From: a virus
Taxonomy: Duplodnaviria > Heunggongvirae > Uroviricota > Caudoviricetes
Virus record (IMG/VR): IMGVR_UViG_3300046786_000272
Coordinates: 1 to 14,061 of that record
Strand: one strand, 5' to 3'
Length of the DNA stretch: 14,061 nt
The position numbers were made by a program, and so were the translations under genes. The notes beneath the pieces are model-generated. The model made no database searches. It was not told where the DNA came from and saw only the letters and a list, made by a program, of their open reading frames with translations. This document shows, in pieces, positions 1-14,061 of this stretch (the first letter of the stretch is position 1; every line of letters begins with the position of its first letter).

Positions 1-2
1 GA

Positions 3-869
3 GGTCACGGAGGTGGTGGTGGACATGCTAGTTCTGGTGGACATGCTTCTAGCGGCGGTCACGCTAGTGCAGGTGGCAAGGGTGGAGGTAGTTCTGCACC
101 ACACGCTACATTCAGACCAGGTACACCGTTTGTACCACACGGAGCAACTGCTGGACGCGGCGCCAGCGGCAACCTAGATGCTAACAATGCGGACAGAGAA
201 GAATATATTAAGTTCTTAACAAGCTATGCTAACGCTATTCGTGCAGGCAAGATGACACCTGAAATGCGTAAATGGTTGACAGTACACCCTGACGTTATTG
301 AAGATTTAAAGCGTGGTCCGCATGGATTAACTATGGGTCAATTGAATGCTGATTTGGTTGACTTAGAATCTCGCAAGAACTATCACTTGATGCGTGAACA
401 AGGTCCTAGTCTATCAATAGAACAACTAGCACATATCAGCGACAAAGCATTAGACGATGCGTATCATTATGGTCGTAGTACTCCAGGCGCAAACTTTGGT
501 TGGTTAGCTAACTTGCAATCAGCCAAAGCCGCAAAGCGTTTAATTGATGCAGGCGAAACTGATATCGAAGTTATTAGTGACGCTATTCACAAGGGTTGGA
601 ATGTTACAGCGGCAGCTGATTACAAAGGTCAACTAAAGCTAGACACACCTACTCCGGACGAAAAGAAATTGAAACGTGCTAAGTTAGCAATGCAATCATA
701 TAGTCAACTTCCAGAAGAAGAAAAAGAGAAGGATCGTGTAGTTGCACGTGCTTTGTTGCAAGCTATAAAGGGTGACCAGTTAGCTGAACGTATGGTCATC
801 GGATGCTGTCCGAATGAAGATCAAAATAGCAATATGTCCGAATCTGCTGATTATCTAGACGAAAAATAA
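3..869 (+). CDS. 5'-truncated RyR-domain-containing protein with N-terminal Gly/His/Ser-rich repeat
   Basis: The frame is open from nt 3 (GHGGGGGHASSGGHASS...) straight into the track ORF at 252, so the true start lies upstream of the window. The C-terminal part has AIHKGW...YSQLPEEEKEKDRVVARALL, which resembles the RyR repeat pattern (H-x-x-W ... Y-x-x-L-x-E-E-E-K-x-x-D-R). Confidence 0.75.
   Translation, partial: GHGGGGGHASSGGHASSGGHASAGGKGGGSSAPHATFRPGTPFVPHGATAGRGASGNLDANNADREEYIKFLTSYANAIRAGKMTPEMRKWLTVHPDVIEDLKRGPHGLTMGQLNADLVDLESRKNYHLMREQGPSLSIEQLAHISDKALDDAYHYGRSTPGANFGWLANLQSAKAAKRLIDAGETDIEVISDAIHKGWNVTAAADYKGQLKLDTPTPDEKKLKRAKLAMQSYSQLPEEEKEKDRVVARALLQAIKGDQLAERMVIGCCPNEDQNSNMSESADYLDEK
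18..71 (+). repeat. 3 x 18-nt coding tandem repeat (GGHASS, GGHASS, GGHASA)
   Basis: ggtggacatgctagttct / ggtggacatgcttctagc / ggcggtcacgctagtgca read directly; the units differ mostly at synonymous positions. Confidence 0.9.
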
Positions 870-890
870 TTTGACCCCCTCTTTAGAGTG

Positions 891-900
891 TAAATATTTA
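891..900 (+). promoter_or_regulatory. Putative T4-type late promoter core (TAAATA) within a perfect palindrome TAAATATTTA
   Basis: Intergenic TAAATA at 891-896, followed by a Shine-Dalgarno-like AGAGGA (910-915) and the ATG at 920. Confidence 0.5.
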
Positions 901-919
901 TATCTTTAAAGAGGACCAA

Positions 920-1801
920 ATGGCAACTAAGAAAACCAAAAAAACTGAAGAAGCGACAGTACCCGTCGAGAAGGTACAAGAAATCGCAGAACAAGCCGCC
1001 CAAGAGCAACAACAGCAACAGGGTCAAGTGCAAGTTAACGTAGACTTTCTACGCACCACAAAAGTACACATTGCAATGCCATGCTATGGCGGCATGTTGA
1101 CTGAATCAACATTCATGAGTTTCATCAAGTGGGCTAACACAGCCCGTCAACTTGGTATTGACTGGACATTAGAAACAATGGTCAACGAATCATTGATTAG
1201 CCGAGCACGTAATACATTAACTGCAAAGTTCTTGGACATGCCTGACGCTACTCACTTGTTCTTTGTTGATGCTGATATTGGTTGGGAACCATGGCACTTG
1301 TTGGTATTACTAAACCGCGATGTAGATGTATGTGCAGGCTTATACCCAATGAAGACTATGCCAATCAAGTGGGTTGTTAATGGCTTTGAGGGCGCAGAAG
1401 AAGGACCTGATGGCTTCCAAGAAGTATCTAAAGCAGGTACTGGTTTCTTATTGATTAAGAAGCATGTATTTGAAAAGCTTAATAAGCACCCAGCAGTTAA
1501 GCCATACAAGAACGATATTGGTCTAGATCCAAAGTATGACCAACACTTGAAGACTTATTTTGACACAGCAGTTCGTCAAGGCCGCTATTACTCAGAAGAC
1601 TGGACATTCTGTGAAAACTGGCGTGATCTAGGTGGTAAGATTTGGATGGACAAACGTATTCTATTGCGTCATTCAGGATCTTATGTATTCTGTATGGAGA
1701 ACCAAGAACACTTGTTGAACACTGTAGGCCCAATGTATATGGATCAACAGCGACAAAAAGGTTTCAAGCTTGTAGATCAAGCTGGTAACGAAATCAAATA
1801 A
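920..1801 (+). CDS. GT-A fold glycosyltransferase-like protein (phage GT2-like)
   Basis: Motifs VHIAMPCYGG, ESLISRARNTL, THLFFVDADIGW (DxD), GTGFLLIKKHVFEKL and YYSEDWTFC. Good SD. The N-terminus is acidic and Gln-rich low complexity. Confidence 0.75.
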   Translation: MATKKTKKTEEATVPVEKVQEIAEQAAQEQQQQQGQVQVNVDFLRTTKVHIAMPCYGGMLTESTFMSFIKWANTARQLGIDWTLETMVNESLISRARNTLTAKFLDMPDATHLFFVDADIGWEPWHLLVLLNRDVDVCAGLYPMKTMPIKWVVNGFEGAEEGPDGFQEVSKAGTGFLLIKKHVFEKLNKHPAVKPYKNDIGLDPKYDQHLKTYFDTAVRQGRYYSEDWTFCENWRDLGGKIWMDKRILLRHSGSYVFCMENQEHLLNTVGPMYMDQQRQKGFKLVDQAGNEIK

Positions 1802-1804
1802 AAT

Positions 1805-1825
1805 GGCCCCGAAAGGGGCTTTTTT
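1805..1825 (+). terminator. Rho-independent terminator
   Basis: GGCCCC-GAAA-GGGGCT stem with a GNRA loop, followed by a T run (1820-1825), 3 nt after the stop codon at 1801. Confidence 0.93.
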
Positions 1826-1847
1826 ATTACGTACTATAAAGTAAGCA

Positions 1848-1862
1848 TTGATAAATACTATA
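1848..1862 (+). promoter_or_regulatory. Putative T4-type late promoter TTGATAAATACTATA
   Basis: An identical 15-mer occurs at 4256-4270, also intergenic. It resembles the T4 gp55 late consensus TATAAATA(ctatt). The core ends 7 nt before the ATG at 1865. Confidence 0.8.
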
Positions 1863-1864
1863 CT

Positions 1865-4243
1865 ATGAATTTAAAAGAGCTTGATTCCTTCAAACTGTCA
1901 GATGCAGTTACTTTCCACGATCATTTGAACCCTGCATTATGGGCGGGTCATAAACTTAAGCCCGCAATAAAAGAACAACTTCTTATCATAGCAAAGGATT
2001 TTTTAGAAGAATTAGGCATTGAAGATTTGGATGTAGTAGATGTTACAGTGTCCGGGTCTAATGCCGCATATAGTTACACTAAGCATAGTGACTTGGATTT
2101 ACATATCTTAGTAGATATGCGTAACTTAAATGATGACGAAGTTTACAAAGAGTTGTTTAATGCAAAAAAGACATTGTACAACGATTCACACCATATCACT
2201 ATAAACAATATACCTGTTGAATTGTATGTACAAGATGCTAGCGAACCAGTAGTAAGTTTGGGTGAGTACAGCATTCTTCATGATAACTGGTTACGACTAC
2301 CTACAAAGCGTAGAGCAAACTTTGACCAAACTGCTACTAAAGAAAAGTATGCAAAGCTTTTGAAACTTATCGAAGTAGCGTTATTGTCTAAAGATATTCA
2401 TAAAGTTCAAGCTGTATTAAAAACAATCAAGCGTTATCGTCAAGCAGGATTAGACAGAGGTGGTGAGTTTGGTCCTGAGAATTTAGCATTCAAGGCACTG
2501 CGTAGTCAAGGATATATCACTAAATTATATCAATTGAGAGACAAGTTACACAGTGAAATTTTGACCATTGAGAACATGTATCAAGATCCTGTTAAGGTTC
2601 AAGAGGATAATTTAGCAGAACAGTTTGCTAGAGAATTTAATCAACAAGAAGTAGACGAAGCAAGAACTAATCCAGAACAAAATGTCAAACTAGAGTCAGG
2701 CATGAAAGAGTTAGAAGCAGTTGCTAAAACTATTAGTGATCCTGAAAATTGGGCTGTAAGTATGACCAGTGAGCCTAAGTTAGGTATCAATCCGCAAGTA
2801 GGTATCAGCGAAGATACACCTAAAGGCATATACTTCTATCCATTGAATTATGTGTTGGGTAAGATTCATAGTAGAAAGCCTTTACCTTGGGCAAATGACT
2901 ATCCCTACATTCAGTTGTTTCAATATGACCGTTCTGGTGAAATGACACAACAAACACAGGTTGATAGTGCTAAACTAAAACAAGCATTAAGTCAATATTG
3001 CTCTCCTGAAATAATGCAACAGGCTGAGGAAGAAGATAGTTATGATGGTACACCATTTTGGTATATCTATGATTGTTTGAGTAGACTAGGTAAAGGTGAC
3101 GAGACTAACATCATTCGCTGGAATAAAGTACTAAGAGACTTGGGCTTTACTAGCGTGTTTGATCCAGGTCGTGGATGGATAGCAGAAAACGAACCAACAC
3201 AAGGTGTTGTACTAGATCCAAGAATTATAAAACAACATAAGACAATTGCTAATCGTAAAGAATCAAAAGTAGTTACTCCTGCTAGTATCGCAAAATCACT
3301 ATTTGACGAAATAGATATGGAACTGGCCAGAAATAGGATATGGCAAATGTATGATCCAGATGGTAGTAAACTTAAGCAGGCTGTTAAGAAATATGCCGCA
3401 GACCCTAAATTCAAACCAGATATCGGTAAAACATACAGTCAAGAATTAGAAGATAAAATAAAGGGTTATAGACTATACGGTGCAAGAGAGTTATCAACTA
3501 TTGCTATGGAATGGTATAAAGCACAGCAGCCAGTCAACGAAGCATTTGACCAACCCTATAAACTTAAATGGGAAGCAGGGGATTACGGTGATGTTGATGC
3601 ATATGCTAAATTAGATGATGGTAACTATCTAAGCATTATGTTCAACAAAGGATATAATCAAGATAAAGAAGAAGCATGGAATGTTGAATTCTTTAGAAAC
3701 AACAGCCAAGAAGTAACAGGTGAAGGTGATGCTCAACGAGTATTTGCTACTGTGTTAGGTGCTATACAAACGTTCATTAAGAAATACAAACCAAATAGAA
3801 TTATCTTTTCAGCAAGTAAGGATAACTGGGCAAAGCAACAACAGAATAGTGAAAGCCGTGCTTCACTATACGACAAGCTAGTTCAGCGTTATGCTAAAGC
3901 ATGGGGCTTTAGAGCTTTTCGTGCCGATACAGGTGATAAAGTTATATACGAATTGAGTAGAATAAAACCTCTTGTAGCAAAAGAAGATACAATGCAATAT
4001 GCGGCAGAGAAAACATCTGCTACAAATCCGTACGGTGGTCAACGAGATATTCAATATCGTGGGTCAATCTCAGAAGCTAGCGGGTACATTCCAAGCGAAA
4101 AAGAGAAAAATGACCCTCGTTTTAAGACAGCATTAACAGTAGATGTTAAGCCTGACAGTATCAAAAAGAATGCAAAAGCATTCGCTTGGTTAACTGACAG
4201 AGCAGGAATACCCCCAACTGCGAATCCTAACGGCAAATTCTGA
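1865..4243 (+). CDS. Multi-domain (polyvalent) phage protein: Pol-beta-superfamily nucleotidyltransferase + ADP-ribosyltransferase-like domain + GNAT-like domain + short C-terminal module
   Basis: N-terminal VSGSNAAYSYTKHSDLDLHILVD (G-S...D-x-D) with a third acidic strand VELYVQD. The middle has TPKGIYFYP...LRDLGFTSVFDPGRGWIAENEPTQGVVLDPRIIK (ART-like). A third block has TGEGDAQRVFATVL...SRASLYDKLVQRY. The NTase call is strong; the other two are pattern-based. Confidence 0.8.
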   Translation: MNLKELDSFKLSDAVTFHDHLNPALWAGHKLKPAIKEQLLIIAKDFLEELGIEDLDVVDVTVSGSNAAYSYTKHSDLDLHILVDMRNLNDDEVYKELFNAKKTLYNDSHHITINNIPVELYVQDASEPVVSLGEYSILHDNWLRLPTKRRANFDQTATKEKYAKLLKLIEVALLSKDIHKVQAVLKTIKRYRQAGLDRGGEFGPENLAFKALRSQGYITKLYQLRDKLHSEILTIENMYQDPVKVQEDNLAEQFAREFNQQEVDEARTNPEQNVKLESGMKELEAVAKTISDPENWAVSMTSEPKLGINPQVGISEDTPKGIYFYPLNYVLGKIHSRKPLPWANDYPYIQLFQYDRSGEMTQQTQVDSAKLKQALSQYCSPEIMQQAEEEDSYDGTPFWYIYDCLSRLGKGDETNIIRWNKVLRDLGFTSVFDPGRGWIAENEPTQGVVLDPRIIKQHKTIANRKESKVVTPASIAKSLFDEIDMELARNRIWQMYDPDGSKLKQAVKKYAADPKFKPDIGKTYSQELEDKIKGYRLYGARELSTIAMEWYKAQQPVNEAFDQPYKLKWEAGDYGDVDAYAKLDDGNYLSIMFNKGYNQDKEEAWNVEFFRNNSQEVTGEGDAQRVFATVLGAIQTFIKKYKPNRIIFSASKDNWAKQQQNSESRASLYDKLVQRYAKAWGFRAFRADTGDKVIYELSRIKPLVAKEDTMQYAAEKTSATNPYGGQRDIQYRGSISEASGYIPSEKEKNDPRFKTALTVDVKPDSIKKNAKAFAWLTDRAGIPPTANPNGKF

Positions 4244-4255
4244 TTACATAGTGTT

Positions 4256-4270
4256 TTGATAAATACTATA
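4256..4270 (+). promoter_or_regulatory. Putative T4-type late promoter TTGATAAATACTATA driving the 4288-10141 operon
   Basis: Exact 15-nt copy of 1848-1862, in the 44-nt intergenic gap. Confidence 0.8.
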
Positions 4271-4287
4271 TTACTTCGGAATTCGCT

Positions 4288-5049
4288 ATGAAAATCAATC
4301 AAATTATCAATGAAACTACTACTGCGGGGTCAGTAGCAACTGTTTCAAAACCCTTAGGTGAAGTGCAAACACGCACTCAAGTTGCAGGTCTACAGCCAGC
4401 AGAAAAAATCATGAAGGGTTCGACAAAGAAAAAAGGTCCTTATGCTAATAGCTTAACTGAAGGAGCTGTAAAGCAACTATCAATGGATCTTAAAGAATTA
4501 AAAGACGAAGAATTCAAAAAGAAGTACAAGATGACTAAGCAGGAAGCTCGTAAAAACTTATCTGCTAAACCTGAACCAGTACAAGAAGCTAAACTAGAAG
4601 AAGAAGATATTATTCTAGTACCCGGTAGAGGATCTAAACGCAAGACTGGCTTTGTTCCTCGCGGTCAAAGTCGAGTAGACCATGAAGTTGAAATGGCTCG
4701 CAGTGATGTTTTAGCTACAATTAAAAATGCAAAAGCAATTTATCAATTGTTAAAAGACCGTAGTGAAGACGAAGGACTTGAAGGTTGGGTACAAGAAAAA
4801 CTAATCAAAGCAAATGATTACTTAAATGCTGTCAAAGAATATTATGACGAAAAGATGATGGAAGAACTCCAAGGCGCCGGCGTCATTGCAGGTGGGCCAG
4901 CATATGAAGGTAAAAAAGTTGACCGCATGGTTAAGCATATTGAAAAGAGTGAAAAGAAATTAGGTCACTCTAAGAAAGAAGCAGAGAACATTGCATGGGC
5001 AACTGCTAACAAGCGTGGCATGTTAGATAACAAGAATAAGAAGAAATAA
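4288..5049 (+). CDS. Modular hypothetical protein, probable internal head (capsid cargo) protein; C-terminal basic ChaB-like motif
   Basis: The N-terminus MKINQIINE resembles the T4 internal-protein capsid-targeting sequence MKTYQEFIAE. Modules are separated by LTE, VQE and MEE/AYE. It ends with KKEAENIAWATANKRG. The CDS is well supported; the function is inferred. Confidence 0.7.
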   Translation: MKINQIINETTTAGSVATVSKPLGEVQTRTQVAGLQPAEKIMKGSTKKKGPYANSLTEGAVKQLSMDLKELKDEEFKKKYKMTKQEARKNLSAKPEPVQEAKLEEEDIILVPGRGSKRKTGFVPRGQSRVDHEVEMARSDVLATIKNAKAIYQLLKDRSEDEGLEGWVQEKLIKANDYLNAVKEYYDEKMMEELQGAGVIAGGPAYEGKKVDRMVKHIEKSEKKLGHSKKEAENIAWATANKRGMLDNKNKKK

Positions 5050-5050
5050 T

Positions 5051-6280
5051 ATGAGCAAGATTACAGATGGCTTAAACGAAGCGTTTAATCGCTACAATCG
5101 CAGAGATTCATACCAGCGTGACTATGATAATAGCGTAGCAGGTATGGGCAAGCGTCAATCATATGCTTACCAACAAGACGGTGGCGCAAATGATGAAGGT
5201 TGGGATGAACCTCAGCGTGACTATACACCTAAACCAGTTTCAAAAAAAGGTATGTATTTCTACAATGTACCAGCCGATCAAGAAGATAAAGCAAATGAAG
5301 TTGGTTTATTCAAAACAAAATCAGGTAAGTGGTACAGTCCGTTTCAGAACTCACGTGCTGATATGTTCTTTGGTAAAGGTAGATACTGGGAACCAAAGAC
5401 TAATGAATCACAATTAGATGAATTAAGCAACGATACATTAGCAAGCTATAAAAAGAAAGCCGGAGCCGACGCATCAGCCGCTGACAAAGCAGGTGATTAT
5501 AAGCGTGGTGACAAGCGTTTCAGCGGTATTGTCAAAGCAACTAATAAAGAATTAGACAACGATGTTAAACAATCTAACGCAAGGTCACAAATAAAAACCG
5601 ATGACAAATTACGTGCTTATTATGCCCAACGCAAAGCAGAGAAGCAAGGTGTAGAAGAAGGTTGGCAAGACGATACACAAGAATTAGAAGACTGGTCAAA
5701 AGAAGTTAACAAGAGATTATATAGAGCACACGAAAGTCAGCGCCCTGCTCTAGCAAGACAATTAAGCAAAGTAGAACAAAAGAATTTTGGCAGTACTCTA
5801 AATCAAGGTGGACTTACAGAATTAATTCATTCAGCATTGAGAGCATTACAAAAAGGTCAAATGGTTCACTACGATCCACAGAGCGTAGGTCAAATGGCAT
5901 TTGGTAGTCTAGTGGGTGATGATGCTAGAATTATAGCGGCTGCTGGAGTTTCTAGTGATGAGCTTGCTGGTTATCGCATGTTGTCTGACAAGGGCATCGT
6001 AGACAACATACAACAATTCCTTCAATTACGCCGTGCGGTTTATAACAAAGAGTGGCCGCAAGAGTATCTTGACGAATTTGCTGGGCGCCCAGGAGCACTA
6101 TGGCTTCAATTTGTTGAAGATTTGGGTTGGTCTAAAGATGACATGAACGAAGAAAAGCAACGTCTAGATCCTAAATGCTGGGATGGTTATAAAAAGCAAG
6201 GCACCAAGATGAAAGGTGATACAAGAGTAAATAACTGCGTTCCAGTAAAAGAATCAGCTATTATGAAGGGTCTTAGATAA
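5051..6280 (+). CDS. Modular hypothetical protein, probable internal head protein, with a C-terminal CWxGY...NCVP mini-domain
   Basis: The N-terminus is MSKITDGLNE. Internal junctions occur at QLDE|LSNDTLASYKKKA, GVEE|GW and MNEE|KQR. The start is 1 nt after the upstream stop. Confidence 0.7.
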   Translation: MSKITDGLNEAFNRYNRRDSYQRDYDNSVAGMGKRQSYAYQQDGGANDEGWDEPQRDYTPKPVSKKGMYFYNVPADQEDKANEVGLFKTKSGKWYSPFQNSRADMFFGKGRYWEPKTNESQLDELSNDTLASYKKKAGADASAADKAGDYKRGDKRFSGIVKATNKELDNDVKQSNARSQIKTDDKLRAYYAQRKAEKQGVEEGWQDDTQELEDWSKEVNKRLYRAHESQRPALARQLSKVEQKNFGSTLNQGGLTELIHSALRALQKGQMVHYDPQSVGQMAFGSLVGDDARIIAAAGVSSDELAGYRMLSDKGIVDNIQQFLQLRRAVYNKEWPQEYLDEFAGRPGALWLQFVEDLGWSKDDMNEEKQRLDPKCWDGYKKQGTKMKGDTRVNNCVPVKESAIMKGLR

Positions 6281-7794
6281 TGAGAGCATTAGACTTAACT
6301 AGAAAACAATCTATTTTTGAAAGTATCGGTAGAGGAGATACATATTTTAGCACATGGGAACGTGAGATTCATCCTACATTGTGTGAGATGGCTTTAAACC
6401 CTACGCAGATTGACCAGATATTTTCAACAGTTCAACAAAACGCAGGACGTAGTATGTTGGGCAGAGCTACTGATGCAGTCGGAGCAGCCAAAGATAAAAT
6501 CAGTGATGCGTGGTTCAATAAGTTTGGTGGCATGTTACAGAATAGTGCACCAGTACAAGGATTTGATGACAAGTGGGAATCTATCAAAAGTAGTGTCGCT
6601 ACTAAACATCCTGAAATAGCCGCTAAGTTAGCAAAGTACGGAGAGTACGCTAAGAACAATCCTAAGATGCACAAGTTCCTGTTAGCAATTGCCGGATCTA
6701 TTGCGGCGTCATTAGGTGTTGCATTAGCAGGTGGAGTTGGAGCTAGTGCGTTAGCAGTAGGTACTGGTGCAGGTATTGCAACTGGTATCATCAACATTGC
6801 TGATAGATTATTACAAGGTCAAAAAGCATCTACTGCTATTGGACGTGGTGCAACAGCAGGTGCAGTTGCAGGATTAACTGCAGGTGGATTGTCTAAAGCT
6901 AAAGAAGCATTGAGTGCGTTAGGTGCAACTAAGTTTTTAGATAGCGGTGTGGGTATGATTAATAACAATGGCACAACGTTCTATCTAAAACCAGAAGACA
7001 TGGCTGCATATCACGAAGGTCAAAAAGTAGCCAATGCTCTGTTAAGAAATGCTAGTATAAATGATTTGGGAGCCGCAATGGATGCTTCCGCGGCAGCAGA
7101 TGCGGCTAATTGGGCTAAGACTTTAGCAAAGATTGGGTCTGAAGCATATCAACAAGAAGCAATACGAGATATGGGAACTATTACAGAAATCCCACCCGGT
7201 GCAGTTGGTGACGCGGCTAATGCAGTAGCTTCATTGCTAAATTCAATTGGACCCGCTTTATCATCAATTGCAGGTCAAGCTGCCGGCGGCTCTAAGCCAT
7301 CTGCACAAAAAGTAACAGAAGGCCAGCTTAATGAGTTATTTGGAATGACTGGTAACAAAGTTGATGCATCTAAATTGAAAGCGGCTTGGGAAAAAGCAGG
7401 AAGCCCTACTGACAGTGTTGCACTCGGTAAGTTTCTAACAACGCAAGGTATATCAAGTCCGGCAGTTACATCAGCGTTCGCACAATTGAAACTACCGGAT
7501 CCATTTGCGGCAGCGCCTGTAGCTAAACCAACGGCAACTACAACAAGTCAACCTACAGCACCAGCTACAACAGCACAACCAACGGCAGCTACAGCAAGTC
7601 AACCGACAGCACAACCTACAACGCCTGCACCAACATCAGCAATTGGTCAAGGCATTGCACAATATAAGCCTGGTCAACAAGGCGTTAATCCAGAATTGCA
7701 AAAGAGATTGGCTGCACGTAAAGCAGGTAAGCCCCAATATGCGGCAAACTTAGAAGAAAACAGATTAAGAAAGCATAAGCATGTTATCAGATAA
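6280..7794 (+). CDS. Hypothetical virion/ejection-type protein with Gly/Ala-rich hydrophobic (glycine-zipper) segment and Pro/Thr/Ala/Gln-rich tail
   Basis: TAATG coupling to the upstream gene. Hydrophobic stretch FLLAIAGSIAASLGVALAGGVGASALAVGTGAGIATGII (from 6676). QPT repeats near the C-terminus. The function is inferred. Confidence 0.7.
   Translation: MRALDLTRKQSIFESIGRGDTYFSTWEREIHPTLCEMALNPTQIDQIFSTVQQNAGRSMLGRATDAVGAAKDKISDAWFNKFGGMLQNSAPVQGFDDKWESIKSSVATKHPEIAAKLAKYGEYAKNNPKMHKFLLAIAGSIAASLGVALAGGVGASALAVGTGAGIATGIINIADRLLQGQKASTAIGRGATAGAVAGLTAGGLSKAKEALSALGATKFLDSGVGMINNNGTTFYLKPEDMAAYHEGQKVANALLRNASINDLGAAMDASAAADAANWAKTLAKIGSEAYQQEAIRDMGTITEIPPGAVGDAANAVASLLNSIGPALSSIAGQAAGGSKPSAQKVTEGQLNELFGMTGNKVDASKLKAAWEKAGSPTDSVALGKFLTTQGISSPAVTSAFAQLKLPDPFAAAPVAKPTATTTSQPTAPATTAQPTAATASQPTAQPTTPAPTSAIGQGIAQYKPGQQGVNPELQKRLAARKAGKPQYAANLEENRLRKHKHVIR
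7525..7638 (+). repeat. Degenerate coding repeat of (S/A)QPTA units (PTS/A-rich linker)
   Basis: Translates as KPTATTTSQPTAPATTAQPTAATASQPTAQPTTPAPTS, with recurring caacc(t/a/g)ac units in the DNA. Confidence 0.75.
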
Positions 7795-8221
7795 TTTAAA
7801 AGTATTATTAGCGAGTACTCAATCATTCGCTATCAAGTCACAGAACTTTCACTGGAATGTTGAAGGTAGTAACTTCCCACAGTATCATGCATTCTTTGAT
7901 ACATTGTACAGTGATGTAAGTGCTACAATTGATCCTATTGCTGAATACATTCGTATTCTTGGTCATTATACTCCTGGTAGCTTAACACGCTATGCTGAAC
8001 TATCAATCATACAAGACCAAATTAAGATTCCTCGTGCTGAATTGATGTTTCAAGAATCATTGCATGATTGTGAACAGATGGGACAATTAGTAACAGCGAT
8101 GTTTGATGAAGCGGCGAACGAAAAGCAACACGGTATAGAAAACTATATGGCTGAACTACAAGACTTGTATGGAAAGAAGGCTTGGTTTATTCGTTCTATA
8201 TTAAAGAAAGAACGTGAATAA
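7781..8221 (+). CDS. dps: Dps family DNA-protection / mini-ferritin protein
   Basis: NFHWNVEGSNFPQYHAFFDTLYSDVSATIDPIAEYIRILG carries the Dps signature (HW, H, D, AE ferroxidase ligands). 146 aa. Confidence 0.92.
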   Translation: MLSDNLKVLLASTQSFAIKSQNFHWNVEGSNFPQYHAFFDTLYSDVSATIDPIAEYIRILGHYTPGSLTRYAELSIIQDQIKIPRAELMFQESLHDCEQMGQLVTAMFDEAANEKQHGIENYMAELQDLYGKKAWFIRSILKKERE

Positions 8222-8298
8222 TGCGTGAAAATGAATATCCAGTATATCCTGAAGATGATGGGTATGACACGTTTAAAAACCCATATAGTCCTGTATGA
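8221..8298 (+). CDS. 25-aa peptide MRENEYPVYPEDDGYDTFKNPYSPV (missed by the ORF track)
   Basis: The ATG overlaps the dps stop (TAATG, 8219-8223) and its TGA overlaps the next start (ATGA, 8295-8298), filling the gap exactly. Confidence 0.75.
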   Translation: MRENEYPVYPEDDGYDTFKNPYSPV

Positions 8299-9320
8299 GA
8301 GCAACAGAATTCATTACTGAAGAAGCAAAAGCCGCCAAATATAACGGCTTAGTTATGAAGTACGCCTTCAACGATAGTGCTTTGATAATGAAAGCATTTG
8401 AACAAGGTAGTCCAATTGCTTATGTTAAGTTTGTCAAAGAAGACAAAGAGTTATATCCACAGGATCTTTGGGTCAATGATGACTATCGCAACAAAGGCAT
8501 TGCTAAGTCAATGTATGACTATCTAAAGAGTGAAGGTTATGTCATCAATAGAAGTCACGACCAAACTAAAGCTGGCACCGGCTTCTGGGATAAACACCGA
8601 GGTGAAGATGCGTATGTTTGGGAAGATGAAGACGTAGATGAAGATATGTCACGTAGAGGCTTCTTAGGAGCATTAGGCGGCGCGGCTATGGCAGCCGCCG
8701 GATTAGATGCAGAAGCAAAACCTAATGCTATTAAACCTAAAACTAAATCACCTTCACAAGATGCTATTCAACAAGCAAAGAAGCAACAAAATGTTAAACC
8801 AGCATCACCTACAAAAGATCCACAAGCAGAAGCAATGTTGTATAGAACAGCAAAAGCTAGCGGAATGAAGGGTAGTGAGTTAGCACAGTTCTTAGCACAA
8901 ACAAAACATGAGTCTTGGGATCACAGCAGATTACAAGAGAAATCAATCGGTGATCCTAATCAGTACTTTGCTAAGAAGTATGATCCTACGTTAGCACCTA
9001 AGACAGCAAAGATTTTAGGTAATAAGCATCGAGGCGATGGTGCAAAGTATCACGGTCGCGGATTCATTCAGTTAACTGGTAGAGATAACTATCGCATGGC
9101 TAGTGAAGCATTGGGATTAGATTTATTGAATCATCCTGAAATAGCAAGTAAGCCAGACGTTGCCGCAAAGATTGCAGTGTGGTATTGGAATACAAGAGTT
9201 AAACCAAAAGTTCAAAACTTTGAAGATACAGTAGCAGTTACAAAAACAATTAACAATGCGATGTTTGGTTTAGAGGATCGACTTGCAAACTTTGTAGATT
9301 ATAAAAAAAGAGTAGCATGA
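8295..9320 (+). CDS. GNAT acetyltransferase-like domain + internal Tat signal peptide + GH19 (chitinase/lysozyme) peptidoglycan hydrolase fusion
   Basis: N-terminus MRATEFITE. GNAT motif A WVNDDYRNKGIAKSMYDY (8472-8504 core). MSRRGFLGALGGAAMAAAGLDAEA at 8646-8717. GH19 motifs FLAQTKHES, YHGRGFIQLTGRDNY and AAKIAVWYW. Confidence 0.88.
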   Translation: MRATEFITEEAKAAKYNGLVMKYAFNDSALIMKAFEQGSPIAYVKFVKEDKELYPQDLWVNDDYRNKGIAKSMYDYLKSEGYVINRSHDQTKAGTGFWDKHRGEDAYVWEDEDVDEDMSRRGFLGALGGAAMAAAGLDAEAKPNAIKPKTKSPSQDAIQQAKKQQNVKPASPTKDPQAEAMLYRTAKASGMKGSELAQFLAQTKHESWDHSRLQEKSIGDPNQYFAKKYDPTLAPKTAKILGNKHRGDGAKYHGRGFIQLTGRDNYRMASEALGLDLLNHPEIASKPDVAAKIAVWYWNTRVKPKVQNFEDTVAVTKTINNAMFGLEDRLANFVDYKKRVA

Positions 9321-10141
9321 AAAAAATTATAACAATATTACTATCAACATTATCATTAACGGCATCAGCATGGGAGCAACGTGCTCCCTTACCACCTCAA
9401 TCTTGTCAAGTACATAGTCCATATGGATTTGCACAAACGCAACGTCCTGCACAGCCGATCTGTCGTGAGGCTTATCTAGTTGCATATGACGCTCCTGTTA
9501 AAATTCCTGCTTATGTAGCGTATACATTAAAGCCAGAAAACGCATTAGGTTGCTTTCCGAGAACAAACGCCTTCGTGGCTGACCAATCATTAGGCGGTAC
9601 AGGTGCAAGACCTGACGACTATGCTGGTACAGGATACGACAAGGGACACGCGGCACCGGATGGGGACCTATCTTACACTCAGCAAGTTGAATATGAATCA
9701 TTCTTGATGACTAATATGTATCCACAACATGGTTCACTAAATCGTGGTATATGGAAATTACTAGAGACAAGTATACGCGGTTGGAGTGTACAGCGTAATC
9801 AAACGTTCACTATCTATGTTGGCGCATTCTACGCACAAAGTACAGAGTACATTGGCGCAAGTAAAGTTATTGTTCCTCATGGTTACTACAAGATTGTCAT
9901 TAATCAAGCAACAGGTGAAGTAGCAGGATGGGTATTCCCTCATACTAAACCTTATGTTAACTTAGGAACTGACTTAGTTAAGTTTCGTCATCCAATCGCA
10001 CAGATTCAAACAGTAGCAGGTGTTAAGTATGCATTCCCTAAGAATGCAAAAGAAGTGGCACCAGGCCAAGAATGGCCTGTTAACTACGGTGATTTGACTA
10101 AAGCTAAACGCGCCAAGTGCGGCGCAAATGCACAAGATTAA
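9317..10141 (+). CDS. Secreted DNA/RNA non-specific endonuclease (Serratia NucA/EndA-type, beta-beta-alpha-metal)
   Basis: Sec-type signal MKKIITILLSTLSLTASA. Motifs GYDKGHAAP, SFLMTNMYPQHGSLNRGIWKLLE and IVPHGYYKIV. ATGA coupling to the upstream gene. Confidence 0.92.
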   Translation: MKKIITILLSTLSLTASAWEQRAPLPPQSCQVHSPYGFAQTQRPAQPICREAYLVAYDAPVKIPAYVAYTLKPENALGCFPRTNAFVADQSLGGTGARPDDYAGTGYDKGHAAPDGDLSYTQQVEYESFLMTNMYPQHGSLNRGIWKLLETSIRGWSVQRNQTFTIYVGAFYAQSTEYIGASKVIVPHGYYKIVINQATGEVAGWVFPHTKPYVNLGTDLVKFRHPIAQIQTVAGVKYAFPKNAKEVAPGQEWPVNYGDLTKAKRAKCGANAQD

Positions 10142-10872
10142 TTCTTTTGATAAACAAAATAGAGCCTGCCAAGTTCGGCAGGTTCCTTTTTGAACTCTAG
10201 TAACGTAAGATTGTACTTTTCAGCAAACTCATTTACAATTTCAAAACTCCAAGGAAAGATATCAACATAAGGTCCTGTCTTGTGTGGTAAACCTGGATTA
10301 GCACGCAAATAGAATCTACCACCCTTTTCAAGTAATGATACACAGTGACTGAATCGTTCTTCAATCTCATCTTTGCTGTTAAAGTTGATGCTACCTAATG
10401 CAATGATAACATCATGTGATTCAGGCTTGACCTTATAATCTAATATATCAACCTCATAGTCAGCACAGTTATTGTATGGATCAATACCGATTAAGTTTGG
10501 AATACGTCCTTTGAAAGGGTGATACCCACATCCAACATCTAACACTTTCTTTGGATTCAGTTTGGTAACTTCTTCACACAATGCCCAACCACTGTGGTCA
10601 TAATCACCTGTTCTTGGCTTCCAAATTTCAGCAAAGAACCGATGTGTATAACGTTCTGATAAATCAGCAACTATATCACGCAATGATCCTATGTAGTCTG
10701 ATTGAATTTGTAGTTCATCCCAAACATGATCTTTGAATTTCTTGTATCGTGCAGGAGTCCAGGGTAGGTCTTGAACAATAGTGTCCCCGTTGATAGAAAT
10801 TTTTGCATACTTAGGTAAATTAAACGCTAACTGCAAATTTTCTTGTAAAAGCTTAAAAATTTTAGTATTCAT
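10138..10872 (-). CDS. Class I SAM-dependent methyltransferase with ~75-aa N-terminal extension
   Basis: Motif I KVLDVGCGY, then IGIDPY and DVIIALGSINF. The start is placed at ATG 10872 (MNTKIF) because the longer start at 10908 overlaps the divergent promoters. Its stop shares the TTAA at 10138-10141 with the convergent nuclease. Confidence 0.85.
   Translation of the reverse strand: MNTKIFKLLQENLQLAFNLPKYAKISINGDTIVQDLPWTPARYKKFKDHVWDELQIQSDYIGSLRDIVADLSERYTHRFFAEIWKPRTGDYDHSGWALCEEVTKLNPKKVLDVGCGYHPFKGRIPNLIGIDPYNNCADYEVDILDYKVKPESHDVIIALGSINFNSKDEIEERFSHCVSLLEKGGRFYLRANPGLPHKTGPYVDIFPWSFEIVNEFAEKYNLTLLEFKKEPAELGRLYFVYQKN
10162..10191 (+). terminator. Intrinsic terminator for the 4288-10141 operon, embedded in the antisense methyltransferase CDS
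   Basis: GAGCCTGCC-AAGTTC-GGCAGGTTC is a 9-bp stem with one G-U pair, followed by C and TTTTT, 20 nt after the nuclease stop. Confidence 0.75.
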
Positions 10873-10883
10873 GGAATTTTTTT

Positions 10884-10891
10884 GATAAATA
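10884..10891 (+). promoter_or_regulatory. Putative late promoter GATAAATA for the tctC operon
   Basis: Same core as at 1850 and 4258, intergenic, followed by SD-like TAGGA and the ATG at 10919. Confidence 0.7.
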
Positions 10892-10898
10892 GAATGAT

Positions 10899-10904
10899 TA
10901 TTTA
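10899..10904 (-). promoter_or_regulatory. Possible minus-strand late promoter core (TAAATA) for the methyltransferase
   Basis: tattta at 10899-10904 reads TAAATA on the minus strand, 26 nt before the ATG at 10872. Only a 6-mer in AT-rich DNA. Confidence 0.4.
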
Positions 10905-10918
10905 ACATAGGAAATCAC

Positions 10919-11872
10919 ATGAAAAAACTTTTATTTGCCCTATTACTATTACCTAGTCTAGTATTTGCTTGGCAACCAACAAAACCTATCACTGTTATAT
11001 TCCCGAATGGACCGGGCGCAGGGAACGAAATCTCTTTCTTCTTTGTAGCAGATATCGTTAGTGAGAAGACAAAGGTACAGTTTAATAGAGAACATCGTCC
11101 AGGAGCAGATGGTAATCTAGCAATGAATCACTTTGCTACTGTACCCGCTGATGGACACACTGTTGCAGTTCCAGCATGTAATAGTCAGTGGGTTACAGGT
11201 GAAGTATGGTACCCACAGACATTAAAGTACAATATCTTTGACTTTGAGCCTGTTGCTAACATAGCACGTAGTCCATTAGCATTCTGGGCACATCCTAGTA
11301 GTAAAGTCAACACACCGGAAGATTTGATTAGAGAGATTCGTGAAAAGAAACGTCCTATCAACTTTGCTATTGGTGGCGGTGGTCACAAACTAGCAGTTGA
11401 ATACTTAACTGACAAACTTAATGTTCCTGGTGGCGATAAAGTACAGACAGTTATGTACAAGGGCCCTGCTCAAGCACTTATGGATACGATGGGAGGACAC
11501 GTTGAATTCAGTGTTACTCCAGTAGGTGTAGGTTATCCTCACGTTAAAGCAGGTAAACTTAAATTAATCGGTCTTGCTAGTGAAGTTCCACTTAAAGGAT
11601 TAGAATCAGCACCATTGATGAGCAAGTATGCTCCGGGATTAAATCTATACGGGTGCTGGAACTTAGTACTACCAAAAGGCACTCCGCAAGATATACAAGA
11701 TTGGTATCATAACAATTTTGTTCCGGCAATTCGTAGTAAAGAAGCAAAAGAAAAATTTGATGACAATCAAATGTTCATAACTACTAAAGAGCACACACCT
11801 CAAGGCGTACATGCAAGCATGGCAGTATTGCGTAGAGAGTGGCAACCAATCGCAAGAAAGATAACACCTTGA
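10919..11872 (+). CDS. tctC: Bug/TctC family tripartite tricarboxylate transporter substrate-binding protein
   Basis: Signal peptide MKKLLFALLLLPSLVFA. Motifs WQPTKPITVIFP, HRPGADG, PADGHT, YKGPAQALMDTMGGHVE, VKAGKLKLIG and PKGTPQDI. Confidence 0.9.
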   Translation: MKKLLFALLLLPSLVFAWQPTKPITVIFPNGPGAGNEISFFFVADIVSEKTKVQFNREHRPGADGNLAMNHFATVPADGHTVAVPACNSQWVTGEVWYPQTLKYNIFDFEPVANIARSPLAFWAHPSSKVNTPEDLIREIREKKRPINFAIGGGGHKLAVEYLTDKLNVPGGDKVQTVMYKGPAQALMDTMGGHVEFSVTPVGVGYPHVKAGKLKLIGLASEVPLKGLESAPLMSKYAPGLNLYGCWNLVLPKGTPQDIQDWYHNNFVPAIRSKEAKEKFDDNQMFITTKEHTPQGVHASMAVLRREWQPIARKITP

Positions 11873-12492
11873 AATATATTTTCGTAGCCGGCGCACCCGG
11901 CTCTAAATGGTCTAGTGTAGTAAAGAATATTTACTACAGCCCTAGCATAGACCAATCTGATTACAGTGATGAACGCACGTATTATCATGATGCTAGTGGC
12001 AGTATGCAATTAATGCACTTAGGTGCATACTTTGATCCTGGCATGGAGTTTGGTGACCTGCTAGCAGACATGCAGAAATACACTAAAGAAGAACTAGAGA
12101 AAGAATTTGATAGACCTTTCTCGGGTGAGGGAGTTAGAATCATCAAGAGTCATGTGTTTGCAAACAATATCGACTTCATTAAAAAGACATGGCCTGACTC
12201 TCCTATTGTTTTAGTGCATCGTGATAATGACAGTTGTTTGGGATGGTGGGTTAAATGTGGTCATTTTGATATAACCTATCCTAAATATGATATATACTAT
12301 AAAGACTTACGTACAATGGCATCTATCATTGAGAAACAAAACAAAGATATTCAAGATGCATCCGACAAACATAAGCCGTTTAGAGTTTATAATAATAGTA
12401 GACTAGCGTTGATTCTTGGAATCGCACAACCACCAGATGAATATAAGCAGAGTTATATAGAAAACGATATAGAGGTATCAGTAATATGTTAA
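11869..12492 (+). CDS. Sulfotransferase-fold protein with atypical PSB loop
   Basis: YIFVAGAPGSKWSSV (PSB-loop position), RIIKSH and WPDSPIVLVHRD (3'-PB-like R). The start is probably the TTG at 11869, overlapping the tctC stop (TTGA), rather than the ATG at 11839. Confidence 0.6.
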   Translation: MKYIFVAGAPGSKWSSVVKNIYYSPSIDQSDYSDERTYYHDASGSMQLMHLGAYFDPGMEFGDLLADMQKYTKEELEKEFDRPFSGEGVRIIKSHVFANNIDFIKKTWPDSPIVLVHRDNDSCLGWWVKCGHFDITYPKYDIYYKDLRTMASIIEKQNKDIQDASDKHKPFRVYNNSRLALILGIAQPPDEYKQSYIENDIEVSVIC

Positions 12493-13172
12493 GTAATTGG
12501 GAAGAAACAAAAAAGCGCAGTAAGTATCACTTTGACCAGTTCAAATTAGATCCTCAGCAAGATAAAGTAACAGCATTAGGTAAGATTGTAGCAGACTTTA
12601 CCCCTGAACTAAAGGACATTATCAAAAATGCAAAGCCTGCAACATGGCGCACACGTGGTAAAGTTGGAAAGTCTAGACCTGAAGAAGAACTAGCTAGCGA
12701 AGACTATGACTTAGAAAAATTTGGTTACGGCAAAGATTATCAGATAACTCATTTGAACTGGGAAATCCCTGAGAAGCTACAGCGCATTAGCAAGCTATTT
12801 GGACTACAAGACTGTATGGATCGTATTCACGTACAAATGCCGGGCGAAGTATGGAACCTACACTTAGATAAGTTAGAAAAATGGTTACCTGAAGAGACAT
12901 GGAGAATCATGAGAATACAGCTTCAATTGACTGATTGGGAGCAAGGTCATTTTTGGAGTTACGGTAACTATACACATCAATTTTGGCGTGCGGGCGATGT
13001 AACTACATTTGATTGGCAAAACATCCCCCATAGTACAGCGAATGCAGGACATAATCCTAGAGTAACATTTCAAATGACAGGTATTGTAACTGAACAAACT
13101 AATGAATTTCTTAATCGCTTAAGTAGATTCGGTAAACATCAACTAGAGTTAAAAGATGCAGGCTGGTTCTAA
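12486..13172 (+). CDS. 2-oxoglutarate/Fe(II)-dependent oxygenase (Asp/Asn beta-hydroxylase-like cupin)
   Basis: RIHVQMPGEVWNLHLD (HxD), then FDWQNIPHSTANAGHNPRVTFQMTG (distal His and the 2OG-binding Arg). Confidence 0.8.
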   Translation: MLSNWEETKKRSKYHFDQFKLDPQQDKVTALGKIVADFTPELKDIIKNAKPATWRTRGKVGKSRPEEELASEDYDLEKFGYGKDYQITHLNWEIPEKLQRISKLFGLQDCMDRIHVQMPGEVWNLHLDKLEKWLPEETWRIMRIQLQLTDWEQGHFWSYGNYTHQFWRAGDVTTFDWQNIPHSTANAGHNPRVTFQMTGIVTEQTNEFLNRLSRFGKHQLELKDAGWF

Positions 13173-13593
13173 AAGAATATTAATCATGGGTCTTCCTGGA
13201 TCAGGTAAGACTACATTAGCAAAGAGAATTATAGCTAAGATGGAGTCTAGTAATAGGACTGTCACCTGGCTAAATGCTGATGAAGTACGTAAAGAATATG
13301 ATGATTGGGACTTCTCAATTGAAGGCAGGATACGTCAAAGTCTACGCATGAATGAGTTAGCAAAGAAGGCCGAAACTGAGTTTGTAGTTTGTGATTTTGT
13401 ATGCCCTTTGCCTGAAATGCGTAAGAATTTTGACCCGCATTTTATCATCTGGTTAGACACCGTTACATCAAGTCAGTATAAAGATACTGATAACATGTTT
13501 ATCAGACCCGAAGGTTACACCTTCAAATTGCTTGCTAAAGATGCTGAAAAGTGGGGAGATTACATAGCGATAAATATTATGAACACACCTTAG
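13156..13593 (+). CDS. cysC: Adenylylsulfate (APS) kinase-like P-loop kinase, short form
   Basis: RILIMGLPGSGKTT (Walker A), WLNADEVRK...DFSIEGRIRQSLRM and VVCDFVCP align with CysC motifs. The RDPKGLY lid segment is not present. Confidence 0.72.
   Translation: MQAGSKRILIMGLPGSGKTTLAKRIIAKMESSNRTVTWLNADEVRKEYDDWDFSIEGRIRQSLRMNELAKKAETEFVVCDFVCPLPEMRKNFDPHFIIWLDTVTSSQYKDTDNMFIRPEGYTFKLLAKDAEKWGDYIAINIMNTP
13569..13576 (+). promoter_or_regulatory. Putative late promoter GATAAATA inside the 3' end of cysC, upstream of the structured element
   Basis: Same 8-mer core as the four intergenic copies at 1850, 4258, 10884 and 13677. Confidence 0.6.
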
Positions 13594-13675
13594 GACCGGT
13601 ACTCGTTACCGTAGTGTGGGCCGGCTGCTGGCCTGATGTACGAATTCGCTACTCGGAAGTCTAAAGTGAGCATTT
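13579..13675 (+). ncRNA. Candidate structured non-coding RNA (unassigned)
   Basis: 13593-13671 is 45/79 G+C in an AT-rich genome. Stems: CGGTA/TACCG (13597-13611), GGCCGG/CTGGCC (13619-13633) and TAGTG/CGCTA (13612-16/13647-51). It is flanked by two late-promoter motifs. Confidence 0.5.
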
Positions 13676-13676
13676 T

Positions 13677-13684
13677 GATAAATA
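13677..13684 (+). promoter_or_regulatory. Putative late promoter GATAAATA
   Basis: Same core as the other copies; 2 nt before the ATG at 13687. Confidence 0.65.
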
Positions 13685-13686
13685 GT

Positions 13687-13953
13687 ATGAACAAGAAAAT
13701 AATTTATACAGCAAAATTTGGCAAAGAATTCTTAACATGGCATCAGTGGGTTTACACTACTAGGTCAGAAGAAGAAATTGACGAATATGAGACTATAGAC
13801 GAGCAACCAGGAAAAATGACTCCCGGTAAAGAAGCATTATTCAAAGCTTGGATAAAGGATCAGGAAATATTAGCACATACAGTTTATGTAGACACTGATG
13901 ATGACTTTATGAAATATTTTGAGTTTACTATTTTTCCACAAGACGAAACATGA
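13687..13953 (+). CDS. Hypothetical 88-aa acidic protein
   Basis: The start is placed at ATG 13687 (MNKKIIY) directly after the promoter motif; the track start at 13636 would run through the structured element and promoter. ATGA coupling to the next ORF. Confidence 0.6.
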   Translation: MNKKIIYTAKFGKEFLTWHQWVYTTRSEEEIDEYETIDEQPGKMTPGKEALFKAWIKDQEILAHTVYVDTDDDFMKYFEFTIFPQDET

Positions 13954-14061
13954 TAGCAGATGACATTTTAACAGAATCAGCAACTAATGAATTAGCCAAA
14001 AGGCTACCGTCATTACGTAAACACAACTATGATACCATTGATACATTAATGCGTGACATAG
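13950..14061 (+). CDS. 3'-truncated hypothetical protein with capsid-targeting-like N-terminus (MIADDILTE|SATNELAKRLPSLRKHNYDTIDTLMRDI...)
   Basis: ATGA overlap with the upstream stop, and an open frame to the window end. Confidence 0.7.
   Translation, partial: MIADDILTESATNELAKRLPSLRKHNYDTIDTLMRDI

Follow-up and report, generated by a model that had tools for sequence, protein, structure and literature searches.

Leader peptides and in-register glutamate junctions mark candidate head-packaged cargo genes in an uncultured T4-related jumbo phage

Introduction

What is the role of a group of phage genes that begin with a nine- or ten-residue peptide ending in hydrophobic-x-Glu (φ-x-E), and that contain the same tripeptide at internal positions? 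Such genes lie in a stretch of 14,061 nucleotides that forms bases 1-14061 of the 82,060-base IMG/VR record IMGVR_UViG_3300046786_000272, hereafter called the window. A sequence-only reading of this DNA had taken positions 4288-14061 to be a cluster of polyproteins that are addressed to the capsid by a T4-like leader, cut by the prohead protease behind this leader and at the internal sites, and injected into the host. Here, we compare the window with its relatives and favour, with moderate confidence, the view that the products of its leader-bearing genes are cargo packaged into the head of a T4-related jumbo phage; in this view, the leader would serve as an address and as a gp21-type cut site and the internal junctions as further cut sites.

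The record has a CheckV completeness of 23%. Its DNA polymerase (16984-19698) shares 47-50% identity with the enzymes of Sinorhizobium phage Phosso and Agrobacterium phage Atu_ph07, 44% with that of Klebsiella phage RaK2, and 82-86% with those of three uncultured contigs (G001, G004 and G011); a 68-residue partial match places a fourth contig, G007, in this last range. Judged from these identities, the source is an uncultured T4-related jumbo phage with a genome of about 300-350 kb, and RaK2, Atu_ph07 and Phosso are among its relatives. A search for near-identical DNA among cultured phages returned no close relative of the record. Comparisons were made with a complete relative, G003 (338,435 bp, with terminal repeats), with G004 (303 kb, DNA polymerase 82% identical), which is syntenic with the window and holds homologues of 78 of the 127 open reading frames (ORFs) of the record, and with environmental loci (L-numbered), among which L006 has a DNA polymerase 86% identical to that of the record.

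A leader far above chance

The genes that bear on the question are listed below, with lengths in amino acids (aa) and isoelectric points (pI); arrows in peptide sequences mark proposed cuts.

1865-4243, plus strand: multi-module protein of 792 aa, outside the range 4288-14061 (Pfam/PHROG scans)
4288-5049, plus strand: basic protein of 253 aa, pI 9.4, ORFan; leader MKINQIINE (4288-4314)
5051-6280, plus strand: four-module protein of 409 aa, ORFan; atypical leader MSKITDGLNE (5051-5080)
6280-7794, plus strand: protein of 504 aa, ORFan in Pfam/PHROG scans, in a conserved family of about 460 aa
8295-9320, plus strand: protein of 341 aa with GNAT and GH19 (muramidase or chitinase) domains; leader MRATEFITE (8295-8321)
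13950-14061, plus strand: start of an ORF of 193 aa that ends at 14531 in the record; leader MIADDILTE (13950-13976), junction KLDE↓T at residue 70

All four leader N-termini picked out by the sequence-only reading are present where it placed them, as is that of the 6280 ORF, which it had added as a fifth example. The leaders at 4288 and 8295 are canonical. That of the 13950 ORF is degenerate, and its orthologues carry MRATEFITE, MRFKQILSE or MRYTEFIIE; that of the 5051 ORF is atypical, with an orthologue that has LDE at the same position. The N-terminus of the 6280 ORF is not of the leader type, as discussed with its internal sites.

A loose form of the motif, ^M-x(4-8)-φ-φ-x-E, is found in 12 of the 127 ORFs of the record against 3.3 expected from internal windows, and a strict form, M-[KR]-x-x-[EQ]-φ-φ-x-E, in three against 0.02 expected. 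A count of this kind had been put forward as a check by the sequence-only reading, and it came out in favour of the leaders. The strict leader occurs seven times in G003 (0.03 expected) and five times in G004 (0.02 expected), and its excess across the record and these two genomes has Poisson P values of 1e-6 to 1e-14. T4, used as a positive control, gave 16 loose matches against 7.3 expected, including the known gp21 substrates IPII, IPIII, gp21, gp22, gp24, gp68 and Alt. For the loose motif, RaK2 (15 matches, 15.6 expected) and Phosso (18 matches, 17.2 expected) are at background, and strict leaders are absent from both. With three strict and about six looser leaders on the record, the leaders are genuine and far above chance.

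Another three carriers are found beyond the window. The first, an Fe/Mn superoxide dismutase (record 37495-38049, minus strand), has a 15-residue N-terminal extension, MRDLIQLLEEKSKPQ, that starts MRDLIQLLEE; the extension is kept at 85-90% identity in seven relatives, and the protein therefore appears to be an enzyme with a leader-like tag. The other two are a GP88-family protein starting MNFKELMEG and a DUF6321 protein starting MRITEILAE.

The leader behaves as a unit that moves between proteins. Its commonest form is MRA[KNT]EFITE, and at eight related loci homologues of the window proteins start with MRATEFITE, MRANEFLLE, MRANEFITE, MKIKEIISE, MKRNEILGE or MRFKQILSE, on varied domain combinations. 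A degenerate DNA pattern for MRA[NKT]EFITE finds at least 120 loci in IMG/VR; among the matches listed, 122 of 122 lie at ORF starts, 107 without an in-frame ATG upstream, and the payloads stripped of the leader form 15 unrelated clusters, the largest of which is a family of about 125 aa. The residues at positions 2-9 are narrowly constrained across 231 strict leaders (R/K, A/I, K/N/T/S, E, F/I/L, I/L/V, T/S and E), and conservation ends at the Glu, positions 10-12 having no preferred residue. Several synonymous codons are used at every leader position, so that selection acts on the peptide rather than on DNA or mRNA. These comparisons support a leader that is a portable, peptide-level module on unrelated payloads.

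Two further kinds of N-terminus resemble the leader. The 792-aa protein starts with MNLKELDSF (1865-1891), which is leader-like without the Glu at position 9; its orthologues start MRLREFSQT or MFLREFKVE, most of them again without Glu at position 9. Such a start may be an uncut address, because an uncuttable T4 capsid-targeting sequence (CTS) still targets. In Phosso, the ORFs at 144135, 327778 and 213423 start with MKTTKDIIFE, MKTMRSIISE and MKTDKVLDE, which are nearer to the ten-residue T4 form MKTYQEFIAE and may represent a lineage-specific leader.

Internal junctions in register with the leader

The sequence-only reading had regarded internal φ-x-E tripeptides as punctuation between modules, with the caveat that x-x-E is common and that the argument rests on position. 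This caveat was well placed: raw φ-x-E counts are flat, and it is the position that carries the signal. In a register test on 2300 ORFs from the record, G003 and the environmental loci, we collected cases in which a module stands directly behind a strict leader in one protein and internally in another. In 58 of 116 distinct junction contexts, φ-x-E lies exactly in register with the leader Glu, where 2.3 are expected (background 0.0199 per residue), and 38 more contexts have φ-x-E at most three residues away. Only two of the junctions are complete internal copies of a leader, such as MRANEFVKE at residues 184-192 of L006_13110. The upstream sides of recurring junctions differ (LVTE, SVEE, SVAE, PVNE, QLNE, PVME, GLDE, GMSE and SMAE), over about ten module families. 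By this test, the putative cut-site motifs sit at module boundaries and not at random positions.

The junctions prefer E/Q at P5, a small or polar residue at P4, V/L/I/M at P3 and N/D/A at P2. With a matrix restricted to P7-P1 and trained on proteins from outside the window, the density of strong sites per 1000 residues is 2.68 for the nine candidate proteins and 0.77 for the remaining 118 ORFs (3.5-fold, Fisher P 0.005). A matrix that also included P1'-P3' gave a 12-fold density excess and was dropped, as this value was inflated by module homology.

Most of the individual sites that had been proposed as punctuation are backed by register or by orthologues. QLDE↓LSNDTLASYK of the 5051 ORF (5411-5422, E124) is in register with MKPSDFLTE↓LSTEKLAKYK of L114 and MRTNEFLAE↓LSNDKLAKYK of G004. 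The 4288 ORF has junctions SLTE↓G (4450-4461) and PVQE↓A (4576-4587), at which orthologues keep φ-x-E while P2 changes (SLSE, SINE; PVKE, VNE), and a stand-alone 56-aa version of this protein (L167) stops at the first junction. VDE↓D of the 8295 ORF recurs among relatives, as described below. For GVEE↓G of the 5051 ORF (5648-5659), a score of 15 bits on the junction matrix is the only support. The proposed MNEE↓K site corresponds to a real junction with a different cut: DMNE↓EKQRLDPKCW (5051 ORF, 6140-6151) is offset by two residues from FITE↓AVKQRLDPKCW, relatives have VAE↓EKQRLD, and this comparative register places the cut at MNE↓E. The module concerned, a basic two-Cys mini-module (KQRLDPKCW...NNCVP) that forms the C-terminal part of the 5051 protein, stands behind leaders in L124 and L139.

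Further junctions follow the same pattern. The 792-aa protein consists of an N-terminal phrog_36119 module, the junction PVNE↓AFDQPY (3530-3541), a DUF6934-like module (residues 552-701) and a C-terminal tail; the junction (E559) is in exact register with MRATEFITE↓AFDKPY of L117, with 74% identity downstream. KLDE↓T of the 13950 ORF (E70) is in register with MKINELLNE↓G of L137, and GLDE↓DWQKVNKK pairs with MKIKEIISE↓DWNKVNKK. Cleavage after the Glu would give the predicted new N-termini TTTAGSVATVSK, AFNR, LSNDTLASYK, EKQR, DMSR and AFDQPYK.

The 6280 ORF stands apart. Its N-terminus is MRALDLTRKQSIFE (6280-6321), and it belongs to a family of at least 290 homologues of about 460 aa with a different, longer N-terminus; we rejected it as a canonical leader protein. 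SIFE↓S (6310-6321) is unchanged in 118 of 119 homologues, QLNE↓L (7324-7335) hardly varies, and both are uninformative because they are embedded in conserved blocks. Its VTE tripeptide is not conserved (25 of 119 homologues). It is doubtful, from these alignments, that this ORF belongs to the cargo system at all. The protein has a Gly/Ala-rich hydrophobic core and a Pro/Thr-rich repeat; at 7521-7622, three imperfect tandem copies of a 24-27-nt unit encode a Pro/Thr/Ala/Gln-rich linker.

Module shuffling and an internal Tat signal

Domain shuffling across relatives, another expectation of the sequence-only reading, is borne out. The GNAT and GH19 domains that share one ORF in the window are encoded by two separate leader-bearing ORFs in L006. 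There, the counterpart of the 5051 protein keeps the first and last modules around a different middle of 670 aa (409 against 890 aa in total), the 792-aa protein is 636 aa long, and the 6280 ORF is missing. These comparisons support the shuffling of modules between close relatives. The domains that can be recognised among payloads and modules are GNAT, GH19, superoxide dismutase, NUDIX and DUF6321 only, and in Pfam/PHROG scans most modules have no recognisable enzymatic domain. For the middle module of the 5051 protein, the ESM Atlas returned unnamed viral clusters only, with TM scores <0.5 and a whole-protein model at pLDDT 0.55.

The 8295 ORF shows what a cut at such a junction might achieve. 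It encodes, in order, the leader, the GNAT domain, DVDE↓D (8631-8642), a predicted twin-arginine (Tat) signal, SRRGFLGALGGAAMAAAGLDAEA (8649-8717), and the GH19 domain. The putative signal (residues 117-141) was recognised by eye from an S/T-R-R-x-F-L motif, a hydrophobic stretch and AEA, is kept in four relatives, and is internal unless the protein is cut at VDE↓D; a cut there would turn it into an ordinary N-terminal Tat signal. In four proteins with different upstream modules, φ-x-E lies two or three residues before S/T-R-R (VDE↓DMSRR, LGE↓DMSRR, LEE↓NITRR and VDE↓DLSRR). The internal arrangement of the 8295 ORF recurs behind other upstream modules in L006, L141 and L180, while in L162 the leader directly abuts the Tat motif (FITE↓ITRR), as it nearly does in G003 (297068).

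A gp21-type protease in the lineage

The presence of a gp21-like protease, which the sequence-only reading had called for, could be established for the lineage and not for the record itself. Phosso, Atu_ph07 and RaK2 all have Peptidase_S77 (the T4 gp21 type), as do 8 of 10 large contigs with the leader. G004 encodes the portal, core proteins, S77 protease, scaffold and major capsid protein on its leader-bearing contig, and in G003 the portal, the head maturation protease and the major head protein were confirmed by PHROGs.

The head proteins of the lineage carry the same site. The protease starts with MNNLLIE↓N and the scaffold with MFEALKPLLE↓S, and φ-x-E precedes the conserved block of the major capsid protein as LAE↓S in G003, LFE↓S in RaK2 and LME↓T in Phosso, where T4 gp23 has LTE↓A. 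The capsid protein of RaK2 runs at an apparent mass lower than predicted, and the authors of that study interpreted this as processing (PMC3622015).

Likeness to known systems

The closest counterpart is the CTS of T4. Read from NC_000866, IPII and IPIII start with MKTYQEFIAE, confirming the leader that the sequence-only reading had quoted, gp24 with MAKINELLRE↓STTT, gp22 with MLKEQLIAE, gp21 with MNEPQLLIE and Alt with MMELITELFDE. In the CTS, targeting depends mainly on residues 4 and 7 and processing on residues 8 and 10, and Asp at position 10 stops cutting without stopping targeting (PMC9026906). The main leader subtype has E-F-I-x-E in common with IPII and IPIII, and its NEFITE matches QEFIAE at the residues that T4 genetics found important (Phe7, Ile8 and Glu10), whereas the 5051 and 13950 leaders of the window keep the φ-x-E part only. 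In a crude ORF call of T4 (NC_000866), MKTFKEFIKE and MAIFQIINE, both CTS-like, start ORFs of 54 aa (18966-19130) and 274 aa (76061-76885).

As in the T4 internal proteins, a short tag ending in φ-x-E stands at the extreme N-terminus, is the sole conserved part of unrelated, fast-evolving and often basic proteins, and occurs in a lineage with a gp21-type protease. Unlike the T4 tag, the present one has nine residues instead of ten and starts MRA or MKI instead of MKTYQ. It is found on about 5-12 genes per genome in a RaK2-related jumbo lineage, and many of its carriers are multi-module proteins with extra predicted internal sites, whereas T4 internal proteins are cut once. The CTS and the diversity of T-even internal proteins behind it were already known (PMC9026906; PMC3012670), and a review suggests that T4-like phages may use the CTS as a general means of loading diverse proteins (PMC9026906). 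The second leader subtype (MKINQIINE↓TTT of the 4288 ORF, and MKINELLTE elsewhere) is nearly the same as the gp24 propeptide MAKINELLRE↓S, although gp24 is a capsid vertex protein and not cargo. Alt is a packaged enzyme that is trimmed by gp21 and processed at both ends. The window proteins show no capsid-protein homology in Pfam/PHROG scans.

Three other systems share individual traits. phiKZ and SPN3US-type giant phages also have many head-internal proteins with propeptides, and multi-site head processing after Glu by an S77-related protease is already known in them (PMC5694885, PMC7411985, PMC10052503); the present lineage differs in its T4-type replication and head genes, in the hydrophobic P3 and in a proposed cargo of small exchangeable modules. 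In the polyvalent proteins of phages and conjugative elements (reference 100 of PMC7824862), unrelated effector-type domains (GNAT, NTase and others) are likewise strung together in one polypeptide that is thought to be delivered with DNA and processed. Those proteins are very large and usually have peptidase domains of their own. Pfam and PHROG scans found no peptidase domain in any candidate ORF, and the candidates measure about 140-800 aa; here, processing would fall to the head protease via a short linker motif. With no embedded peptidase domain and at 141-792 aa, the candidate ORFs were rejected as polyvalent proteins in the sense of the Aravind group.

Finally, a 427-aa protein adjoining the terminase gene of two T4-like cyanophages, Prochlorococcus phage P-TIM68 (L014 1981-3264; AIR93437) and Synechococcus phage S-B43 (L015 1954-3237; QDH50481, 'structural protein'), contains the same mini-modules, DUF6321 and CW...NCVP. 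The cyanophage DUF6321 is 85% identical over 87 aa to that of the record 39677 ORF; VSE stands immediately ahead of it in S-B43, and TNE, without a hydrophobic P3, in P-TIM68. Unlike the candidates, the cyanophage protein has no MRAxEFITE leader, and its gene lies within a structural gene block. The shared mini-modules imply that freshwater jumbo phages and marine cyanomyophages exchange modules. DUF6321 is present in Pelagibacter podophages too. Literature searches for the leader strings and DUF6321 found nothing relevant, and we found no paper on such leaders in RaK2-related or uncultured jumbo phages.

A candidate route into the host, and its rivals

Targeting, cleavage, packaging and ejection of these proteins are what we infer from the comparisons above. 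During prohead assembly, the protein would dock onto the scaffolding core through its nine-residue, CTS-like leader. Cleavage behind the leader Glu by the gp21-type (S77) prohead protease would follow, and the same protease would cut internal [EQ]-[SGNP]-φ-x-E↓ junctions, freeing small modules of about 40-225 aa, many of them basic (pI >9), inside the head. Subsequently, these modules would exit the head with the DNA at infection. For the 8295 ORF, the internal cut would expose the Tat signal on the GH19 wall hydrolase.

A stronger version of this proposal is possible, and we put it forward tentatively. Here, the head protease would be a polyprotein processor of modular cargo, in which one address tag serves exchangeable mini-proteins that are delimited by [EQ]-[SGNP]-φ-x-E↓ and freed in the head, and in which a cut can unmask a Tat address that sends the injected GH19 hydrolase to the periplasm of the new host.

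If the leader is a true capsid address, it provides a listing, from sequence, of proteins carried into their hosts by a large, abundant group of uncultured freshwater jumbo phages. The head-carried class is where anti-restriction and host-takeover functions occur (T4 IPI* and Alt), and finding its members otherwise needs virion proteomics. The in-register junctions go beyond T4 in suggesting cargo made as strings of exchangeable mini-modules between protease sites, which would explain the rapid domain shuffling between near relatives. If this modular reading holds, injected phage proteins could be recognised directly in metagenomes from their tag and linker. In practical terms, the leader is also a candidate tag for packing foreign proteins into other capsids of the T4 type. 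As the T4 concept is decades old, what is gained is breadth and the polyprotein variant rather than a new principle; the new element is the quantitative in-register junction result.

Several observations weigh against packaged cargo. Some concern the sites themselves. Raw internal φ-x-E is not enriched over shuffled sequences (55 against 46.5), and other proteins give the same ratio (472 against 394). The junction contexts of the register test are partly non-independent, since homologous modules recur (e.g. DWQKVNKK and NFADGK), and the 6280 ORF and its VTE site do not fit the proposed system. Others concern the phages. The 82-kb record shows no Peptidase_S77 and no head gene, an absence that is uninformative at 23% completeness. 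RaK2 and Phosso have the protease and no strict leaders, so that having the protease is not enough to predict the system. Among cultured phages, no carrier of the leader was found, and tblastn against cultured phages returned no full-length homologue of the 5051, 13950 and 38049 ORFs. In addition, there is no obvious benefit in delivering a Tat-exported wall hydrolase into a freshly infected cell, and strict-leader genes, considered one by one, show no significant link to ATAAATA, the late-promoter-like motif described in the last section (3 of 9 against 53 of 399, P 0.11).

An unlikely alternative, although one that keeps the prohead protease, is a role as assembly factors of a core or scaffold type or as fillers that condense DNA. 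Like T4 gp22, gp67 and gp68, the proteins would be degraded and expelled or would stay with the DNA, and they would not be injected effectors. Many fragments are indeed small and rich in Lys, with a basic pI (9.1-9.9 for the fragments of the 4288 protein and the C-terminal module of the 5051 protein), the T4 core proteins bear the same N-terminal motif, and the lack of a recognisable enzymatic domain in most modules would suit such a role. However, folded enzymes (GNAT, GH19, Fe/Mn superoxide dismutase and NUDIX) are unlikely scaffold parts, and fast module turnover between phages that are about 85% identical is typical of conflict genes rather than of assembly parts.

About equally improbable is a cytoplasmic process unrelated to the capsid, such as cleavage by another Glu-specific protease, the timed release of a Tat-exported lysin, or recognition by the Clp and chaperone machinery that the phage itself encodes. 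Tat signals directly behind leaders and junctions would make sense for export from the producing cell, and the record encodes ClpX, ClpP, ClpS and DnaK. Yet Phosso has a ClpP-like gene without such leaders, and the annotated ORFs contain no other candidate protease. Furthermore, the motif matches gp21 specificity and the T4 targeting residues, and the same site is found on the head proteins of the lineage.

We consider it very unlikely that the leader is kept for gene expression or recombination, as a translation-initiation context or a cassette-exchange site, with internal φ-x-E as decaying, functionless leftovers of fusions. Leader codons are A/T-rich, and the two junctions that are full leader copies mean that leader-gene fusions occur. 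This explanation conflicts with the free synonymous variation at every leader position and with the lack of DNA-identical linker repeats in the window. The other 56 junctions keep φ-x-E only, with P2 and P3 varying among orthologues, a pattern of selection on a minimal cut site and not of neutral decay. Chance, finally, which the flat raw counts might suggest, deserves next to no weight: it is refuted, both for the leaders and for the junctions taken as a class, by the Poisson values in three genomes with null results in two controls and by 58 in-register junctions where 2.3 are expected, although single sites such as VTE may be due to chance.

Other genes and observations

The window contains the following further features.

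3-869: partial ORF
920-1801: matches phrog_1574 only, a family of unknown function
7781-8221, plus strand: Ferritin/Dps-like protein without leader (PF00210, E 2.7e-16; phrog_3636)
9317-10141: NucA-type endonuclease with a signal-peptide-like N-terminus
10138-10908, minus strand: methyltransferase-like protein
10919-11872: TctC-type binding protein with a signal-peptide-like N-terminus
11839-12492: sulfotransferase-like protein
12486-13172: ORFan
13156-13593: APS-kinase-like protein
13636-13953: ORFan

The cargo cluster that had been drawn over 4288-14061 holds in part only: the leader genes are there, and about half of the range consists of unrelated genes (9317-13949) and the leaderless Ferritin/Dps gene. 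No leader was found on the latter or on any gene of the block 9317-13953. The Ferritin/Dps gene is a steady neighbour of leader genes among the relatives. The stretch 9317-13593 is a host-like gene block flanked by leader genes; within it, the closeness of a sulfotransferase-like to an APS-kinase-like gene may point to a sulfation pathway. L006 lacks this block except for a partial homologue of the 12486 ORF. G004 keeps most of it, with no APS-kinase-like homologue among the matches listed; its syntenic genes are a 920-1801 homologue, a 792-like protein, a 4288-like protein (MRFKQIVE), a 5051-like protein (MRTNEFLAE↓LSNDKLAKYK) and Dps, and further NucA, methyltransferase, TctC, sulfotransferase and a 13950-like protein.

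A late-promoter-like motif, GATAAATACTATA, lies 14 nt upstream of the 1865 ORF and 29 nt upstream of the 4288 ORF. Of two pairs of near-identical 18-nt repeats, the first, TTGATAAATACTATA[CT]TA (1848-1865 and 4256-4273), stands directly upstream of these two ORFs; the second pair is TTTTGATAAATAG[AT]ATGA (10880-10897 and 13673-13690), and both contain the T4-late-promoter-like ATAAATA. In G003, 56 of 71 copies of ATAAATA lie at most 60 nt upstream of ORFs, portal and tail genes included, and from this placement the motif looks genuine. Its presence ahead of the 1865 and 4288 ORFs as well as of such structural genes is one of the points in favour of packaged cargo. Elsewhere in G004, positions 187811-207190 (minus strand) form one open reading frame of 6459 codons.

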